A stretch of 64,000 bases of DNA, taken from assembly GCA_965237905.1 (NCBI GenBank), contig OZ250172.1:800001-864000 (forward strand). Direction: 5' to 3'. The position numbers and the translations under genes are program-made. Positions 47,264 through 54,852 of this stretch are shown one piece after another. Source of the stretch: Nitrospinaceae bacterium (lineage in GTDB: Bacteria; Nitrospinota; Nitrospinia; Nitrospinales; Nitrospinaceae). How positions within the stretch are numbered: the first letter of the stretch is position 1; each line of letters starts with the position of its first letter. The notes beneath the pieces are model-generated. The model was not told the DNA's origin and did not search any database. It saw only the letters and a list, made by a program, of their open reading frames with translations.

Positions 47264-47655
47264 AAACTGCCCTGCGGAAACCAGAAATTCTCGCCCACGT
47301 CGAAGCCGAAACCCATCGCGCCGGAAAGCCGCGTCTGCCAGGTCCAGAAACAACTGCCGTACCCGATCTCGAAGATGGGATCGATGTGCAAGACATACGT
47401 GCGGCCGCGCGACTCGAACTCATGCTTGAGCTCGTACACGCTTTGCAGTTCCAGCTTGTTGGGCAAACGCCAGTCGGTATGCCCGCCCAGTTGTTTGCGG
47501 TTGAGTTCCTCGACATATTTCCCGGCGTCGTACCAGTTGACGTAGTTCCCCGTCTCGGAGTAGCCGTAGCTCTCCTGCCACATCAACCCGGTCACAGAAT
47601 CGGTCAGCGTGCCGTCGCCGTTGTCGGTATAACGCTCAATGCTGCGCTCGGTCAT
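47179..47655 (-). CDS. DUF1566 (Lcl C-terminal-like) domain protein
   Basis: DNGDGTLTDSVTGLMWQ, GGHTDWRLPNKLEL, FWT, VRAVR. Confidence 0.85.
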   Translation of the reverse strand: MTERSIERYTDNGDGTLTDSVTGLMWQESYGYSETGNYVNWYDAGKYVEELNRKQLGGHTDWRLPNKLELQSVYELKHEFESRGRTYVLHIDPIFEIGYGSCFWTWQTRLSGAMGFGFDVGENFWFPQGSLSATVRAVRLNMNPFKLIRTYGHEKTAQ

Positions 47656-47996
47656 GCCAGGCGTTCCAGCGGGGATTGACGCTCGAAGGTGTAGCCGCAG
47701 GTGTCGATATCGCTCGGCGCATCCGGGTACTTGAGGCACAGCAGGGGTTTTTCGGGCGAGTTGTGGACCTTGCATTGATTATCTTCCGTCAATTGACTGC
47801 ACGGGATATCGACCGCGTAAAACAGCGCGTTGCCCGCCACGTCCTCCCCCACCACCCGGATGCCCCGGTAGCCGAGGTAACGCTCCAGTTCCTCCCGATT
47901 GCCATGCTGGCGCAGAGTCACATCCCGCACCACCGTTAGATTCACCGTCCTGCAACACTCGCCGCATTGATGACATTCACCTGTTCGATTGAGCAT
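47652..47996 (-). CDS. YkgJ-like CxxCxxCC cysteine-cluster protein
   Basis: CHQCGECC ... CSQL...CKVH...KPLLCLKYP. Confidence 0.85.
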   Translation of the reverse strand: MLNRTGECHQCGECCRTVNLTVVRDVTLRQHGNREELERYLGYRGIRVVGEDVAGNALFYAVDIPCSQLTEDNQCKVHNSPEKPLLCLKYPDAPSDIDTCGYTFERQSPLERLA

Positions 47997-48184
47997 ACTA
48001 TTGTTCCTGTTAGGGTTTCCCGAGATCATATCCTAGCATAACTTACAGGAGAAACAGCGGGAGACCAGGCGCTAGTAGTGTCTCAGCTTGAAATCGAATG
48101 TCCCCGAACGGCCAAAAGCGGATATTCTGCTCGGGTTGAAATACTTTCCTGCTCATATCCGACTTCCATGTATCAAGTTTTAGG

Positions 48185-48231
48185 CCCAAATCCTAACACA
48201 ACACCTGGACCGGTTTTTGGGGGGCGGGTCA
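48185..48231 (+). mobile_element. Orphan IS3-family right end (remnant)
   Basis: CTAACACAACACCTGGACCGGTTTTTGGGGGGCGGGTCA resembles IS3-family IRR (ending GGGGCRGGTCA); no transposase present. Confidence 0.5.
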
Positions 48232-48235
48232 GTCA

Positions 48236-49186
48236 TCAGATAAATGTACCGCCAGCGGAATGAAACAGAGCGCTCGCCTTGTTGAGTCGGTCCAGCTGAT
48301 CGGAAGTAAGCGTAATTTCCCCGGCAGCACAAAATTCCTTCACCTGATCCACTTTGCGTGACCCTACCACAGCGGTGGTGATATTCTTTTGCTGGATCAC
48401 CCATGCGAGTGCAACGTTGATGGGGGCCGTATTGATTTCTTGTGCAATTTCCTGAACAGTGTGGCGCACGGTTTGCGAATCACCTAAATGAGGCTGCCAA
48501 TACAGGTAATATTCCTTGCGGGAGGGTGCCTTTAGGGCCTCTTCATCGAGTCGACCGGCTAGTAGACCACGGGCACTGGGCGAACACGCCATGTAACCGA
48601 TACCGGCTCTTTCACATTTTTTTAAATGCTCTCCTTCGTACTCGCGCTGAAGCAGGTTATAAGGAACCTGATTGACGGTGAACAACGAGGCGGCGCCTGC
48701 CATCAGGCCAATGTCTATCGCCCGGAAATTCGAGATACCTACGGTACGGGCCTTGCCACTTTCTTTGAGGGCAGCCATGATGTCGCACATCTTCCCGGTC
48801 TTTAGCATGGTGTCTAAATACATGCCCGGCCAGTGGACCAGATACACATCGACATAATCCCGCCCAAGCGCTTTCAACGTACCCTCAAGACGCGACTGGT
48901 AAGCCTCGAGTGTCAATCCGGCATCGGGCCAGATTTTGGAAACGATGAGGACATCGTTTTTGCGGGAGCCCAGGGCTTTGCCGAGGCGGCGCTCGGATTC
49001 CCCGTCGCCAAAACCCTCGGCGGTATCAAACGCCATGATGCCGCCCTCCAGGGCGGTCTTCACCACCCGGTCGGCCTCTTCTACCGAACACACGTCCCCC
49101 CAACCTTCGCTGGGGGCAATCTGCCAGCAGCCAAAGGTGAGGGCCGTCCAGGGGATATCAAGTCCTTCGACTTTTATTGAACGCAT
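48236..49186 (-). CDS. Aldo/keto reductase family protein (catalytic Tyr apparently replaced by Phe)
   Basis: FGCWQI, FDTAEGFG, IVSK, YLVHWP, VGISNF, NQVPYNLL, ALAWV. Confidence 0.85.
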   Translation of the reverse strand: MRSIKVEGLDIPWTALTFGCWQIAPSEGWGDVCSVEEADRVVKTALEGGIMAFDTAEGFGDGESERRLGKALGSRKNDVLIVSKIWPDAGLTLEAYQSRLEGTLKALGRDYVDVYLVHWPGMYLDTMLKTGKMCDIMAALKESGKARTVGISNFRAIDIGLMAGAASLFTVNQVPYNLLQREYEGEHLKKCERAGIGYMACSPSARGLLAGRLDEEALKAPSRKEYYLYWQPHLGDSQTVRHTVQEIAQEINTAPINVALAWVIQQKNITTAVVGSRKVDQVKEFCAAGEITLTSDQLDRLNKASALFHSAGGTFI

Positions 49187-49341
49187 TATTTCACAATCAG
49201 CGTAAAACGCCGGTAGCTGAGGTAACGTTCCAACTCCTCCCGATTGCCGTGCTGACGCAGAGTCACATCCCGCACCACCGTCATATTTACCGTCCTGCAG
49301 CACTCGCCACACCCGTGGCACTCACCTGTTCTATTTAACAT
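49186..49341 (-). pseudogene. Truncated second copy of the YkgJ-like gene (5' 45 codons)
   Basis: MLNRTGECHGCGECCRTVNMTVVRDVTLRQHGNREELERYLSYRRFTLIVK*; near identical in protein to the N-terminus of 47652-47996; has GAGG RBS; TAA overlaps the AKR ATG. Confidence 0.75.
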
Positions 49342-49405
49342 CATATCCTCGAATAGTTTAAAAAATAGATAAATTTAAAAGACCGCCAAGGTTTAATAGA
49401 AACCC

Positions 49406-52400
49406 CTATATAGACCACCAAGCCTCTTGTTCTTCATCTTCATCGCGGGCAGCAGCTTTTTCAAGGCCCAGTTGATGAAGGATTTGTTGCGCCCATATAC
49501 GTACACGTTTAACCGGATGGTTTTCTAATTCTTTGAAAGGAAGTTCATAAAGCTCAAAGTATTTTGTGCGCGAACCAGACCAACCGTATGAGTATATATT
49601 TCTATTTATTCCATTTAATACATTTTCCCTATCACCAAATTCATCTAACAGGCGGCGAGTAACAGGATGAATCGTTCGATCAGGAGCATCGGGATCCCTT
49701 GAAGAGAGAACCGGGGCTACAACAGAAACAAAAGCCGGGGCTTTTTCAGGGTTGGCATGGCACCAGGCAAATAGAGTGTCTTCCGGTAAGTTCAAAATTG
49801 CGGGATTAGGTTGTTTACTGAACGAATGCTTGTCTCCAAGGAGATACTCAAACTTCCATATAAATTTTTTGTTGGAAATTATAGCTTGGCCTATGAGCGG
49901 CCATGAAATTTCAGGAAAGTCGGCTAGCAATTGTGGAATAAGAGGTTTAATCAATTCTTCTCCGCCAGAATCAACTGAATGAATGAGTTGACGTGTTAGA
50001 GATAGGGCTATTTTTCGAGCTGTTGAATTTCCCCGCCCTTTATCCAAAACCCATTTCATTATTTCTTCGAAATGGTGACCATCCATGTGTGACCGACCAC
50101 CATTTTCAGCCTTAGTACTTGCTTTTTCCGCAGCAAGAAAAATTTGAGGTGTAAGGTCCTCCAACACATGTTTTCGTGAAAAAGCATACATCCCCATAAG
50201 ATTTATGCCTACTAAATAAGCGTCCTTTCCCATTTCAAATAAAATTTCAAAAAGTGGAGCAACATGTGGTGCTGGGAGCTCAGCAAGCTTTCCACCGCCA
50301 CTCCATACCATAAGGTGCCAAGGATTTATTAGCCTTGAAATTAGCGCCTTTAAAACTAGAGGAATATCGCTTGGTTTTATATCAATTTGCCAACAAATGG
50401 AAGGAAGGGCAACCGCGAGGTCAGATGACACGGAAGCTTTTTGTTTAAAATCTTCTACAACATCAGGGTTTGTTTTAACAAGGCTTGATAAATAACCTGA
50501 TAAAAATTCAAAATTTCTTTCTTCTTTATTAATGGATGTTAGGGCAGCGATTATAGAATCAAGAAAAGATACAGGATCATCAATTTTTTCTGAAATAGCA
50601 TACCCAAATACCGCTGCCATACGTTGTTGGCCTTTGATCACCTGGGGGAGGCATGTTCTTAAATCTTCAATATTTTTCGAAAGTTCTCCGGCTAGAACTT
50701 CCACATCCTCTTTTTGCCGTTTGTTTTGTTCTTCATAAGAAAGCTTTTTGTCACATGGATAGTCCCACGGCATTTCTGTGACAAGGGAGCGCACACGATC
50801 AATCAATGCTTCCGGTTGTAGCCTGCTGATTAACTCCTGTACTTTCTGAATAATTTCCTTTTCTAATCCCTCTTTATCATAAACTAAAACATGACCCAGA
50901 CTTTCATAAGCCTCTGGCCAATATGTACCATGAATGGAACTAACATCTTTGATAGCTTTCTCGACAATATGCATCAAATTCCGTGTTGCTAGCGACCTGA
51001 ACTTATGGCCCAAGCCTTTTCCTGCTAATCTCCCCACTTCATCTTTTCTTTGGGCAAGTGTGATTAGTCGATTGCAACATTCTTCAATATAATTCCAAAC
51101 TTCGCCCCAAGTTTCAGGTTGCCATGGCTCCAGCGCAGGACGGCTGCCGTGTGTTTCAGAACCTACGGATCGGGAGAAATGATCCATTTGTGCGCCTTGG
51201 AGTAAAGCTTCGACAATAATCAATAGCCGTCCTTCTTCCTCTGTGTTCAATGCATCTCCAATAAACCTTAGGCGTCTTTCACCATCAGCAGCAGTATCAC
51301 CTAAATATACAGGAAAAAGTGATTTGAATTGTCCCGTTGCATTATTAGAATAATTTTCGTTTTCCGCAACGGCAAGGTCCAGCATCAACTTGGCTCCTCG
51401 TTCAAACGTATCAGGATCAAAACATACTTTATCTAAAGCCCAGACGATGTGACGCCTAGTATCATTGTCAATACTGATTAATTTTTCGCAAGAAAGATTT
51501 CCAATAATCCTCTCAAGCAATGTTACAGCTGCTTCAGTATCTATTTCTGCCAAATTGGAAAAAAATTCTGAATGCCCCGGCTTGGCTAGACTTTCAAGAG
51601 AATCAAAGGGACCACCTCTTCTTAATAAATGCCTACCAATCGTACTACCAAGGTCAGTGGTGTTTAGCAGTTTAAGTTGTGACGCGGCTCTCTTTTTAAG
51701 CCCTTCTGGCAAAGATCCTTCAATGATATTATCCCAATCATCCTTCCCCCACTCACCCCAAAGTTTTTCAGCTAAGTTCAAAGCTACAGGACGGGGCTGA
51801 ATCATAAAGCTCTTTCCTTTGGTTTGCACGATCCCACGATCTACCAACCTTCTTATTGCTGAACGCATTGCTTCAGGGCTCAAATTACGACCAAGTTTTG
51901 AGACCGTTCCGATTTCGCTATCATAGATAATTCCAAAAATACTTAAGATCTGGGCACCCCGAAAAAGAATATCCGCTTCCACTTGATCACGTCCTATGAT
52001 AATTGCTTTTGCAATGTCTTCAGGAGCGTAAGCAACTGGAATATTCTGAACCCCAACCTGCCCCAATAAAACCGCGATTTTTGGAAAACCTTGGGAGAAT
52101 CGTACAAGCCGCCTAAAATCCTCATCAGGTTGACCGCTATTGATGGCTTTTAAGATTCCCTCGATTACGGCTTGGTCAGCTAGCCCTACAATAACTCTGC
52201 CTTCACCCTCTAAAAAAGGAGGCTCATTATCAATAGTAACAAGCGACAGAAGACTTTCCTGCCTTTGGACAACATTGGATAGATCTAAATGGGTTTGTGC
52301 ATCACAATGATCGACAACAATGATAACCTCTGTAGGAGAGTCGGCAAGATTCTGAACCGCGAGTTTTACCGCAATGCTCCCGGCCATCTGTTCATCAATA

Positions 52401-53455
52401 TAAAGTGCCCGTTCACTTAACTGGAATGAAGAATCACTGCTGGATTCTTTAGTGTCCAAGGTCTCTAAGACAAGACGTGATTTACCTACTCCTGGAGGGC
52501 CAAGAACACGTGCAACACCTTTTGGGTGGTCAATAATAGGAAGCAATTTTTGGCGCAGATCTATACGGCGAGGATCTTCAACCCAGGGAGTGCTGTGCTC
52601 AGGACTGGTTTTCCAGTAGGACCAAGTTTTAAATTTACCAATAGCGCCATGCTCGGTTTGTTCCAAGAGCCAAACTGCAACAGAAGTATGAGTATTGACC
52701 CACTCAGCAATTTGGCTTGAATCCCAAAAAGCCACTTGCCAATCGTCAATCTTTAGCCCAGCTTCCTTTAGGGAAGCACGAATGGACTTCTCCTTTTTTA
52801 TAATTTCTTCCTTAGTGTAAGAGTGGGCGCAAAGCAGAGTGTAACTTCCTCCAGCCTCTAGCATGGAGAGCACCATGGGTTTTATTTTCCCATCAGGTTT
52901 CAGAATTTCCTTGCCAACTTTTTTATTGTCAACTTTACCTGATTTCAGTTGAAACTGATTTAAGCGATGACGCAAATAACGAGTTTTTTCCGGGCCCCCT
53001 GTCCATACAATTCTCCCATCTTCTCCACCATCAGGCGCTGTTATATTTTCAGCCACGTGAATACCATCTCCTGGAATAGAGTGGGCATAGGCTTCTGCCG
53101 CTAATAGTCGTCTCATGAGCAGAGGAAACTTGTCTGCAGATAGCTCAGCAACATGTTTTCCGCTGACTTCAAAAGGTGACCTCCCTCCTTTTGTTGTAGA
53201 TTCCCTTGTTTTTCCAGTTAGGATTTTAAGTGACGCTGGGTTTGTTTCCAGAATTTTTAAAAGGTTTATTACGGCAGCAGCCGGCTTAATAGCCCCAGAC
53301 TCATATTTTGTGAATGCCCGCGGACCACCGCCAATCAATTCTCCAGCCTCAACTTGGGAAAGGCCAAGGCCTTCCCGAATTGTTTTAATACGTTTCGGAG
53401 ACAAATTTTCCTTTTTATTGTTTTCTAAATCACTTTTTCCGTTTTTCATAACCAT
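49406..53455 (-). CDS. HTH + PD-(D/E)XK nuclease + STAND-like P-loop ATPase + helical-repeat protein; candidate Avs-like defence protein
   Basis: MqsA-like HTH (LGLSQVEAGELIGGGPRAFTKYESG), PDGGEDG...FQLK, Walker A GPPGVGKS, Walker B IIVVD, long alpha-helical C-terminus; AT-rich. Confidence 0.8.
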   Translation of the reverse strand: MVMKNGKSDLENNKKENLSPKRIKTIREGLGLSQVEAGELIGGGPRAFTKYESGAIKPAAAVINLLKILETNPASLKILTGKTRESTTKGGRSPFEVSGKHVAELSADKFPLLMRRLLAAEAYAHSIPGDGIHVAENITAPDGGEDGRIVWTGGPEKTRYLRHRLNQFQLKSGKVDNKKVGKEILKPDGKIKPMVLSMLEAGGSYTLLCAHSYTKEEIIKKEKSIRASLKEAGLKIDDWQVAFWDSSQIAEWVNTHTSVAVWLLEQTEHGAIGKFKTWSYWKTSPEHSTPWVEDPRRIDLRQKLLPIIDHPKGVARVLGPPGVGKSRLVLETLDTKESSSDSSFQLSERALYIDEQMAGSIAVKLAVQNLADSPTEVIIVVDHCDAQTHLDLSNVVQRQESLLSLVTIDNEPPFLEGEGRVIVGLADQAVIEGILKAINSGQPDEDFRRLVRFSQGFPKIAVLLGQVGVQNIPVAYAPEDIAKAIIIGRDQVEADILFRGAQILSIFGIIYDSEIGTVSKLGRNLSPEAMRSAIRRLVDRGIVQTKGKSFMIQPRPVALNLAEKLWGEWGKDDWDNIIEGSLPEGLKKRAASQLKLLNTTDLGSTIGRHLLRRGGPFDSLESLAKPGHSEFFSNLAEIDTEAAVTLLERIIGNLSCEKLISIDNDTRRHIVWALDKVCFDPDTFERGAKLMLDLAVAENENYSNNATGQFKSLFPVYLGDTAADGERRLRFIGDALNTEEEGRLLIIVEALLQGAQMDHFSRSVGSETHGSRPALEPWQPETWGEVWNYIEECCNRLITLAQRKDEVGRLAGKGLGHKFRSLATRNLMHIVEKAIKDVSSIHGTYWPEAYESLGHVLVYDKEGLEKEIIQKVQELISRLQPEALIDRVRSLVTEMPWDYPCDKKLSYEEQNKRQKEDVEVLAGELSKNIEDLRTCLPQVIKGQQRMAAVFGYAISEKIDDPVSFLDSIIAALTSINKEERNFEFLSGYLSSLVKTNPDVVEDFKQKASVSSDLAVALPSICWQIDIKPSDIPLVLKALISRLINPWHLMVWSGGGKLAELPAPHVAPLFEILFEMGKDAYLVGINLMGMYAFSRKHVLEDLTPQIFLAAEKASTKAENGGRSHMDGHHFEEIMKWVLDKGRGNSTARKIALSLTRQLIHSVDSGGEELIKPLIPQLLADFPEISWPLIGQAIISNKKFIWKFEYLLGDKHSFSKQPNPAILNLPEDTLFAWCHANPEKAPAFVSVVAPVLSSRDPDAPDRTIHPVTRRLLDEFGDRENVLNGINRNIYSYGWSGSRTKYFELYELPFKELENHPVKRVRIWAQQILHQLGLEKAAARDEDEEQEAWWSI

Positions 53456-53494
53456 AGTGACCCTATTTTGAATTTCTTTCTCACGTCAGTATTT

Positions 53495-53692
53495 CTAGTG
53501 TCGCAGTGCTGTTTCCAGAATCATTAACCGGCGTTTTAAGGCAGAGTCCGGCTTGGTGACCCCGGATTCATATTCTTCGAACGCTCGAGGAGCACAGTTA
53601 AATAATTCCTCAGCTTTAACTTGGGAAAGACCAAGGCTTTCCCGAATTATGCGGATTCGTTGTGGTGAAAATTTATCTTTATAAATAACCAT
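53495..53692 (-). CDS. Stand-alone MqsA/Xre-like HTH protein, paralog of the downstream gene's N-terminus
   Basis: SPQRIRIIRESLGLSQVKAEELFNCAPRAFEEYESGVTKP. Confidence 0.75.
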   Translation of the reverse strand: MVIYKDKFSPQRIRIIRESLGLSQVKAEELFNCAPRAFEEYESGVTKPDSALKRRLMILETALRH

Positions 53693-53748
53693 AGTGGTCC
53701 TTAGTCTAAATCTATACCATTATGGTCACAAGTCGACTGAGATGTCAA
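53688..53748 (-). promoter_or_regulatory. Promoter with two ACCA-N3-TGGT palindromic operators
   Basis: TTGACA (53743-48), 18-nt spacer, CATAAT (53719-24); ACCATTATGGT at 53716-26 and ACCATAGTGGT at 53688-98. Confidence 0.6.
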
Positions 53749-53832
53749 CGGTGGGATATAATTTTTTTGGTTTGGGGGGTTTAAGCCCTCTCGCAGGCTA
53801 TATTTCCGTTTTCCTGAAGATGCAATCGGACG

Positions 53833-54852
53833 TTACACACAATAGGGCGGGATACCCTCTTCGACGGGTGTGCCGGGTTTGCCGTTCTTGATGTTCTGGA
53901 TGTTTTTGGCGGTGCCGGTGATCATTTTCTGGCGGGAGATTTCGATCTGCCGCATGATCTCGTCGGGTGAATCGGTGAGCAGGTTGCCGAACTTGGGCTG
54001 GCATTTCAAATTGCCGACGTCACAGCACGGGGTCATCTCCCCGGTTTGCTGGACGGTCATGATCTCGATGGTACCGCGCGGGATGGTGCACTCCAGCGTG
54101 TTGACGTCTTTCGGGAACGGTTGCGACACCATGGCCCGCTCTCCCCGCTCGTCGACATAAAACCCCAGGATCATATTGACCCCAAAGGTGAAGCCGCCGA
54201 CGGTGGTGTAGCTCTCGATATCTGCCATCGCGTTGTTGAATTCCGCTTCCGTGCATCCCGGCTTTTCTTTCACCAGTTGTTCGATCCGCTCGCGGTGGGC
54301 CTCCAGCAGGGTGAGGGTGGGATGAAACTTCGCCCCCTGCTCGCCAAAAAATTGCTTCATCGTTTCCAACTGAGTCAGCAGGTCCGGCACCTTTTCGAAA
54401 ATCATGTTCACGATCAATTCGTTCTGCAGTCCCAGGATTTCTTTCAGCAGAGGTTTTTGCCGTGATTCCCACACGGTGGGGTACAGGGTGAAATCGACCC
54501 GCCCGTGCAGTTTCATGATTTCCACCAGCCGCAACCAGCGTGAGTGCGTGTTCGATTGGATGTCGAGGTTGGTGTGCAGGCGGACGTTGGGCGAAATCCT
54601 GCGGAAGATGTTGAAAATTTCGACGAGGTGCGGATTCTGCGAAGGCTCGCCGCCGGTGAAGTTGATTTCCTGTTGGGCCAGCTGGTTGAACAGGTCGATC
54701 TGCTTGATCTTGTCCACCATCACCTGCGCCTGCTCCGGCAGGAGATGCCAGTCGCTCCGGTCGATCTTCGACAACGGCTCGTAGACGTGGCAGTACGTGC
54801 ACTCATCGCGCACGTAGCGGTTGCAATTGGCTTCGACAAATATATTCAGCAT
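53833..54852 (-). CDS. Radical SAM protein with CX7CX2C motif and twitch/SPASM-like C-terminus
   Basis: CNRYVRDECTYC, FTGGEP, LHTN, C...GEMTPCC...FGNL. Confidence 0.85.
   Translation of the reverse strand: MLNIFVEANCNRYVRDECTYCHVYEPLSKIDRSDWHLLPEQAQVMVDKIKQIDLFNQLAQQEINFTGGEPSQNPHLVEIFNIFRRISPNVRLHTNLDIQSNTHSRWLRLVEIMKLHGRVDFTLYPTVWESRQKPLLKEILGLQNELIVNMIFEKVPDLLTQLETMKQFFGEQGAKFHPTLTLLEAHRERIEQLVKEKPGCTEAEFNNAMADIESYTTVGGFTFGVNMILGFYVDERGERAMVSQPFPKDVNTLECTIPRGTIEIMTVQQTGEMTPCCDVGNLKCQPKFGNLLTDSPDEIMRQIEISRQKMITGTAKNIQNIKNGKPGTPVEEGIPPYCV

Follow-up and report, generated by a model that had tools for sequence, protein, structure and literature searches.

A divergent Avs8-family gene with an N-terminal MqsA-type helix-turn-helix domain and a predicted operator pair in a Nitrospinaceae genome

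Results

Genes and predicted regulatory sites of the locus

The window analysed here is a stretch of 64,000 nucleotides (nt) from a Nitrospinaceae bacterium (assembly GCA_965237905.1, contig OZ250172.1, positions 800,001 to 864,000 of the forward strand). Its minus strand carries two ORFs (open reading frames) separated by 39 nt: a gene encoding a 1349-amino-acid (aa) protein (49406..53455) and, directly upstream, a 65-aa ORF (53495..53692). An earlier note, made from the letters of the window alone, had proposed that they form an undescribed antiviral module, in which a nuclease-STAND-helical sensor protein of the Avs type is fused to an MqsA-type helix-turn-helix (HTH) domain and accompanied by a free HTH. 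Both ORFs were found with the motifs announced (PDGGEDG and Q-x-K, Walker A), and the MqsA_antitoxin profile PF15731 scored above its cut-off of 30 in both, with 49.1 bits in the long protein and 33.6 bits in the short one.

Four parts of the long gene, hereafter HTH-Avs8, were delimited on the minus strand from the ORF, profile matches, hhalign alignments and an AlphaFold2 (AF2) model: the MqsA-type HTH (aa 15-76; 53228..53413), an Mrr-like QxK nuclease (aa ~94-270; 52646..53176) with D142/D146 and Q169-x-K171, a STAND NTPase module of approximate boundaries (aa ~290-570; 51746..52588) with Walker A at aa 319-326 and Walker B at D382-x-C384, and an alpha-helical sensor (aa ~571-1349; 49409..51745), which is homologous to the Avs8 sensor and is predicted to bind capsid protein. 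The 65-aa ORF duplicates the fused gene's 5' end in truncated form and encodes the HTH only, with an altered recognition helix. Upstream of it, a promoter scan identified a predicted -35 box, TTGACA (53743..53748, minus strand), which is present in genome G012 too. Two copies of the palindrome ACCA-N3-TGGT, to which no strand was assigned, are predicted operators: the -10 box predicted for the best promoter match (53719-53724) lies within O1 (53716..53726); O2 (53688..53698), 28 nt from O1, covers the start codon of the 65-aa ORF. A degenerate copy of O2 with two mismatches (53451..53461) covers the start codon of the long gene.

The long protein is related to Avs8 over its whole core

The PADLOC profile PD-Lambda-4_A (Avs8A) matched residues 95-1344 of the long protein (E 1e-70; profile positions 4-1279 of 1283), and the only other PADLOC matches of this protein were to RmrA and confined to the HTH. 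PD-lambda-4 has been renamed Avs8 (bioRxiv 10.1101/2025.07.02.662641). The last third of the sensor was not matched by the short PADLOC profiles. The protein of locus L089 (1777 bits on the PD-Lambda-4_A profile) was used as a stand-in for the tested Escherichia coli Avs8, and the long protein is 21% identical to it (E 1e-28). When the long protein was aligned by hhalign with an 11-sequence canonical Avs8 clade, all seven segments matched in order with probabilities of 96.7-99.8%, compared with 0.1-0.6% for reversed controls. Among them, the STAND module segments reached 99.7% and 98.1%, and the four sensor segments, all collinear with canonical Avs8, reached 96.7-99.4% (reversed controls at most 0.6%).

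Conservation is complete across the aligned homologues (73 of 73) for D142, G144 and D146 of PDGGEDG, for the pair Q169-x-K171 and, around Walker A, for G319, K325 and R327. Q169 and K171 align with Q78 and K80 of L089, the site of the EcAvs8 nuclease mutant Q78A-K80A (Lee et al., PMC13581612). The Walker B motif had been called atypical: the D-x-C is present, but it is a family trait, canonical Avs8 having DNC, and a special meaning of this motif was rejected. An alignment-based AF2 model of residues 93-1292 (mean pLDDT 90.9, pTM 0.74) is nearly all helix after residue ~555, as had been anticipated for the C-terminal region; a single-sequence model of residues 1-652 was set aside (pLDDT 34.6). 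The best Foldseek matches of the AF2 model were SAMD9, Avs3 and Avs4 (E about 1e-8), and a sequence search of the PDB with the long protein matched the HTH only.

In conclusion, judged from its sequence, the 1349-aa protein is a divergent receptor of the Avs8 (PD-lambda-4A) family, homologous to it end to end. The profile matches agree with the proposed nuclease-STAND-helical sensor of Avs type bearing an MqsA-type HTH. The claim of an undescribed system had to be abandoned because the core is that of Avs8. A match to an Avs type already described as carrying this HTH had been named as the finding that would speak against novelty; the type is indeed described, but Avs8 is without the HTH.

Capsid protein as the predicted ligand

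Avs8A is reported to bind HK97-fold capsid monomers, to require ATP and Mg, and to degrade double-stranded DNA (bioRxiv 10.1101/2025.07.02.662641), and its capsid trigger was confirmed by Lee et al. (bioRxiv 10.64898/2026.01.04.697583; Nature 2026, PMC13581612). A predicted complex of the sensor with the HK97 capsid protein encoded by the same genome obtained a weak score of 0.47, compared with 0.00 for the best of three controls; contact agreement in the sensor-capsid runs was at least 65% and the pLDDT of the partner at least 64. Of 157 solved pairs, 116 attained the complex-score mark, as did 2 of 215 mismatched pairs; only 18 of the 157 solved pairs did so with a score of 0.60 or lower, a range that also held both mismatches.

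A receptor of this kind, still self-repressing, might have moved its sensor to another phage protein or signal. The low identity to canonical Avs8 leaves room for such a shift, as do the last third of the sensor, outside the short PADLOC matches, the segment aligned at 96.7% only, and the HK97 capsid gene of the genome itself, with which a capsid sensor would need to coexist. However, the alignment with canonical Avs8 covers all four sensor segments in their order, each Avs family is reported to read one fold across distant homologues (Lee et al., bioRxiv 10.64898/2026.01.04.697583), and the complex prediction, weak as it is, separates from its control. We therefore consider a change of ligand improbable.

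The capsid gene (G000:C1:1731828-1733018) lies in a compact phage-like cluster of head genes (G000:C1:1726241-1740328), beside dnaA/gyrB-like genes. The names given to homologues of the capsid protein hint at a Nitrospinota-like host. PF05065 was found in 28 of the 61 genomes searched (this one included), mostly in one copy and with similar scores, resembling a domesticated element. The product of this gene is a possible self-trigger for a capsid sensor.

The fused HTH and its clade

TIGR03830 matched the long protein by its HTH half only (profile positions 55-126 of 127), the zinc finger being absent. R46 and K50 of the fused HTH align with N97 and R101 of E. coli MqsA (PMC5422877), and the recognition helix is nearly invariant among aligned homologues. 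PF15731 was present in all 120 homologues listed, of 747 found (query included). In trees of the core without the HTH (85 and 42 rows; FastTree and a smaller IQ-TREE), the HTH-bearing proteins formed one group with a support of 100 and one loss (L037), apart from canonical Avs8. HTH-independent searches of 1103 genomes with the PADLOC profile recovered both HTH-bearing and HTH-less forms. HTH-Avs8 homologues are spread over many phyla, with 34-55% protein identity. In L037 (near 8000), the HTH is removed by a clean in-frame deletion, and O1 carries two changes compared with the near-identical sister L019; this is one case.

In viral contigs, an alignment search gave stand-alone HTHs only, and phage records gave no match; a single-protein search for related loci was empty for viral as well as genome contigs. 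No description of an HTH-fused or self-repressing Avs8 was found in the literature searched, although large supplementary files may list such fusions. The terms 'HTH' and 'MqsA' are absent from the main text and seven supplements of Lee et al. (PMC13581612), whose large files may nevertheless list fusions, and 'HTH' is absent from the main text of bioRxiv 10.1101/2025.07.02.662641. In databases, such proteins of 1340 aa carry the names of MqsA antitoxins or of YiaG/XRE regulators, but they are Avs8-type defence nucleases, found in many phyla.

Two other Avs8-like genes encode an in-frame N-terminal DNA-binding domain of another type: an unrelated HTH_37 at L122:565-930 (+) and a LexA DNA-binding domain at L135:2240-2554 (+).

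The 65-aa ORF

As stated in the earlier note, the small HTH is a paralogue of the fused one, with the recognition region NCAPRAFEEY instead of GGGPRAFTKY; the two genes share 72% DNA identity over 171 nt and a common start-codon context. The proteins differ at 26 of 58 residues, including the invariant G38, G43, G44, K50 and A60, so that 5 of 15 invariant columns are changed and 10 kept. The T49E and K50E changes shift the charge of the helix region from +1 to -2. Between the two copies, dS is 0.76 and dN 0.33 (dN/dS about 0.44), compared with a dN/dS of about 0.06 between the fused copy and that of G012; this strong conservation of the fused copy places most of the amino-acid change in the small one. 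In a neutral simulation, the frame stayed open in 29-41% of runs, and five or fewer invariant columns were changed in 24-64%. In G012, the nearest relative, the corresponding promoter directly precedes the fused gene, and the 65-aa ORF of the window occupies the place of the fused gene's 5' end.

Neither 64 genome loci nor 52 HTH-bearing metagenome loci showed a separate HTH copy next to the gene, and no short homologue of the 65-aa HTH was found. L040 and L045 gave weak, unrelated HTH matches elsewhere in the locus, and in L029, L169, L212 and L213 the HTH is cut off by a break within the same gene. The free HTH, proposed in the earlier note as a repressor or dominant-negative partner, is not a conserved partner. 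A new two-gene system was rejected.

The 65-aa HTH could still be a working second component in this genome, either as a repressor or as a DNA-blind dominant-negative partner of the fused HTH that raises expression. It has an open frame of 65 codons behind an intact promoter, its dN/dS and the conserved invariant columns could reflect function, and the charge change would fit a DNA-blind partner. On the other side stand the lack of any counterpart in the genome and metagenome loci, the concentration of change on the small copy, and the simulation, in which decay often leaves a frame as open and as little damaged as this one. A functional role is hence hard to credit; judging from the sequence comparisons, the small gene probably arose by local duplication and is now decaying, its recognition helix being damaged.

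An assembly artefact as the source of the duplication was rejected. One contig covers 47500-53932 with zero differences; because the run behind it could be where the window itself comes from, the agreement argues only against an assembly error.

A conserved palindrome pair upstream of the HTH

An unbiased count took in every palindrome having 4-bp arms and a spacer of 0-8 in the 215 nt preceding the HTH of 62 loci. ACCA-N3-TGGT ranked first, with an exact copy in 41 of the 62 HTH loci (0.15 expected); with one mismatch allowed, it was found in 52 of 62, compared with 7% of control windows. It was also present in 26 of 31 non-redundant metagenome loci, a set partly overlapping the first. In contrast, it was found in none of 31 relatives without the MqsA-type HTH, although longer windows were searched; L029 (HTH split off by a break, operator present) and L104, L110, L112 and L126 (fragments or mis-anchored) had been dropped before counting, and six loci had no nuclease match. 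A second site lies 27-32 nt from the first in 56 of 71 loci, and the spacing counts were 57 in 12 offsets versus 15 in the remaining 86. In this genome, O1 and O2 form the only close pair among 71 ACCA-N3-TGGT sites.

The best of seven promoter sites matched -35/-10 at 11 of 12 positions; since 8.0 sites are expected in shuffled sequence, the promoter scan alone is weak. Terminator-like matches were at chance level.

The operator of E. coli MqsA is ACCT-N3-AGGT, bound through N97 and R101 (PMC5422877), from which ACCA-N3-TGGT differs by one base per half-site. Because the palindrome covers a -10 box and a start codon and is so close to the MqsA operator, it is likely that the fused HTH represses its own promoter; the earlier suggestion of autoregulation is backed by the conserved, putative operator pair. 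Sequence conservation points to a palindromic operator matched to the HTH at its own promoter, a feature of mqsRA. A phage-borne mqsRA-like operon encoding the same FTKYE helix has an exact ACCA-N3-TGGT over the start codon of its first gene, and the two other types of such operons with upstream sequence have a site with one mismatch. The sharing of this site by phage-borne operons suggests that promoter, operator and HTH were captured from an mqsRA-like operon.

That the palindrome is merely a promoter or start-site feature inherited from a captured toxin-antitoxin (TA) operon, the HTH serving receptor dimerisation or tethering of the nuclease to DNA, would agree with its overlap with the -10 hexamer and ATG, the single origin of the fusion and the 10 of 62 HTH loci without the palindrome, but is very improbable, as a -10 box leaves the outer ACC/GGT bases and the second copy at fixed spacing unexplained, the palindrome is kept across many phyla at 34-55% protein identity, the recognition helix is nearly invariant, and O1 is changed where the HTH is deleted (L037).

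The phage-borne operons (L145:4960-5000, L147, L142 and L143) have an F-[TA]-K-Y-E antitoxin helix and an exact or one-mismatch site at the start of their first gene, and may point to the MqsA family having a second operator specificity. The partner gene in L145 had no Pfam match.

Neighbouring genes and genomic site

Neither an MqsR toxin gene nor a zinc-finger antitoxin is present at the locus, in agreement with the earlier note, which had seen no MqsR/RelE toxin. Only 85 nt separate the upstream radical-SAM gene from the promoter, so that a toxin gene does not fit, and a toxin-antitoxin system was rejected for want of room for a toxin and of a zinc finger. A genome-wide MqsR search was blank, as was its control. 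The downstream B gene of PD-lambda-4 is missing after the long gene, which is followed in the window only by a YkgJ-like gene fragment.

The neighbours of 62 of the 64 related loci were scanned (177 ORFs of at least 150 aa within 3 kb, composition-filtered gene calls). As to the defence context that the earlier note had asked about, 28 of the 62 loci had a PADLOC match at E<=1e-30 among the neighbours up to 3 kb away (a hand count with no background control), including restriction-modification, CBASS, Gabija, DarTG, AbiE and IetAS genes. No neighbour family recurred in more than 6 of the 64 loci.

The GC content of the island is 0.42, compared with 0.505 for the genome, which places it among the lowest 1% of 4-kb windows. 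The claim that it interrupts an operon held for the island but not for an intact operon: its flanks mark a variable cargo site, where three same-genus genomes have 10-23 kb of other genes. On one side lies the radical-SAM gene; on the other, a partial, 84% copy of a CxxCxxCC (YkgJ-like) gene's 5' end (49210..49346, minus strand) forms the downstream island edge, the source gene being at 47652-48029. Among 60 relatives, a full-length copy of HTH-Avs8 was found only in G012 (57%, at another site) and a C-terminal piece in G022; none was found in 10 same-genus genomes, several of them incomplete. This distribution suggests that the gene is a recent, mobile arrival.

The cargo hotspot spans 48030-53830, from the radical-SAM gene to the YkgJ-like gene, with counterparts in L091, L092, L093 and L094. 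In the same-genus genomes, its cargo consists of unrelated genes spaced by partial copies (50-270 nt) of the flanking gene ends; such short copies suggest repeated insertion by homologous recombination. In one of these genomes, a NERD + UvrD helicase gene (L092:10506-12344) stands in the position upstream of the YkgJ-like gene. An element of 45-55 nt at 48074-48131 has three further copies in the genome (82-89% identity) and also occurs in relatives. The 3' end of the radical-SAM gene (53828-53985) has a 92% identical copy at G000:C1:1360154-1360311, and a full paralogue of this gene (67%) lies at C1:1081820-1082840.

Discussion

Taken together, the long gene probably encodes an Avs8-family receptor that binds an HK97-fold capsid protein and then degrades DNA, that represses itself through its HTH at paired palindromes, and that is preceded in this genome by a decaying duplicate of that HTH. 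At rest, the receptor would bind the operator pair through its HTH, presumably two HTHs per palindrome as for MqsA, which would block transcription and keep its level low. Such self-repression could limit how much of a lethal nuclease is made in whichever host the gene enters. Upon infection, by analogy with published Avs8 work, capsid monomers would bind the sensor, ATP would drive oligomerisation, and the QxK nuclease would cut phage and host DNA, so that the infected cell dies. Promoter, operator and HTH may have been captured once from an mqsRA-like operon, minus toxin and zinc finger. The truncated HTH between promoter and gene would stem from a duplication, in this genome, of about 240-270 nt, and the two genes are likely co-transcribed.

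Several observations weigh against this reading. First, identity to canonical Avs8 is only 21%, with the tested E. coli protein represented by L089, whole-chain Foldseek TM-scores are low (0.13-0.23), and the HTH clade sits on long branches from canonical Avs8, the deep order being unresolved; owing to this distance, the ligand may differ from that of Avs8. Second, the HTH was gained once, which reduces the comparison of loci with and without it to a single event in evolution, and an HTH pattern was used to fetch most of the HTH loci. Third, part of the palindrome's conservation may come from the -10-like hexamer and ATG that it contains, only 16 of 41 loci had a -35 box (at least 4 of 6; controls 13%), and several of the 10 HTH loci without even a one-mismatch site have an intact helix. 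Fourth, as its own site has two mismatches, control of the long gene depends on read-through from the small ORF. Finally, known defence genes were not identified among the window neighbours scanned.

The receptor might in addition be its own ligand-controlled transcription factor: oligomerisation driven by capsid would free the HTHs from DNA, and the ensuing burst of receptor would amplify the suicide response. We consider this extension rather doubtful. If true, it would amount to conditional control in the manner of a TA system, transplanted into an NLR-like sensor, and the HTH_37 (L122) and LexA-type (L135) fusions would make built-in self-control a recurring trait of the Avs8-like family. 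How lethal NLR-like receptors are safely dosed in bacteria, especially after transfer to a new host, has been little studied; the question is directly testable here, since a regulator has been specified together with its likely binding site and with residues for mutation.

Comparison with known systems

On the evidence of sequence, what is known in this system is the Avs8 core, and what appears new is the N-terminal MqsA-type HTH with its operator pair. Avs8/PD-lambda-4 and the window protein are collinear over ~1250 aa and have in common an Mrr-like QxK nuclease, a STAND NTPase whose Walker motifs are the same, and a helical sensor related by homology. The window protein differs by its HTH and operator pair, its low identity and its position in a separate clade; it also has no conserved downstream gene, and Avs8B is reportedly dispensable in E. 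coli, where A works alone (bioRxiv 10.1101/2025.07.02.662641).

Avs3, Avs4, Avs7 and SAMD9-like STAND receptors share the nuclease-STAND-helical sensor plan, but have other sensors or triggers, gave low whole-chain TM-scores and had no PADLOC match here. The mqsRA system (PMC5422877; PDB 3fmy, 3gn5) has an HTH of the same family and, as reported for E. coli, two sites with a promoter palindrome of 4-bp arms and a 3-nt spacer; the MqsA helix VNAFSRY and operator ACCT-N3-AGGT correspond to PRAFTKY and the predicted ACCA-N3-TGGT in the window. Unlike mqsRA, the window system has neither zinc finger nor toxin, and its putative repressor is part of the lethal effector.

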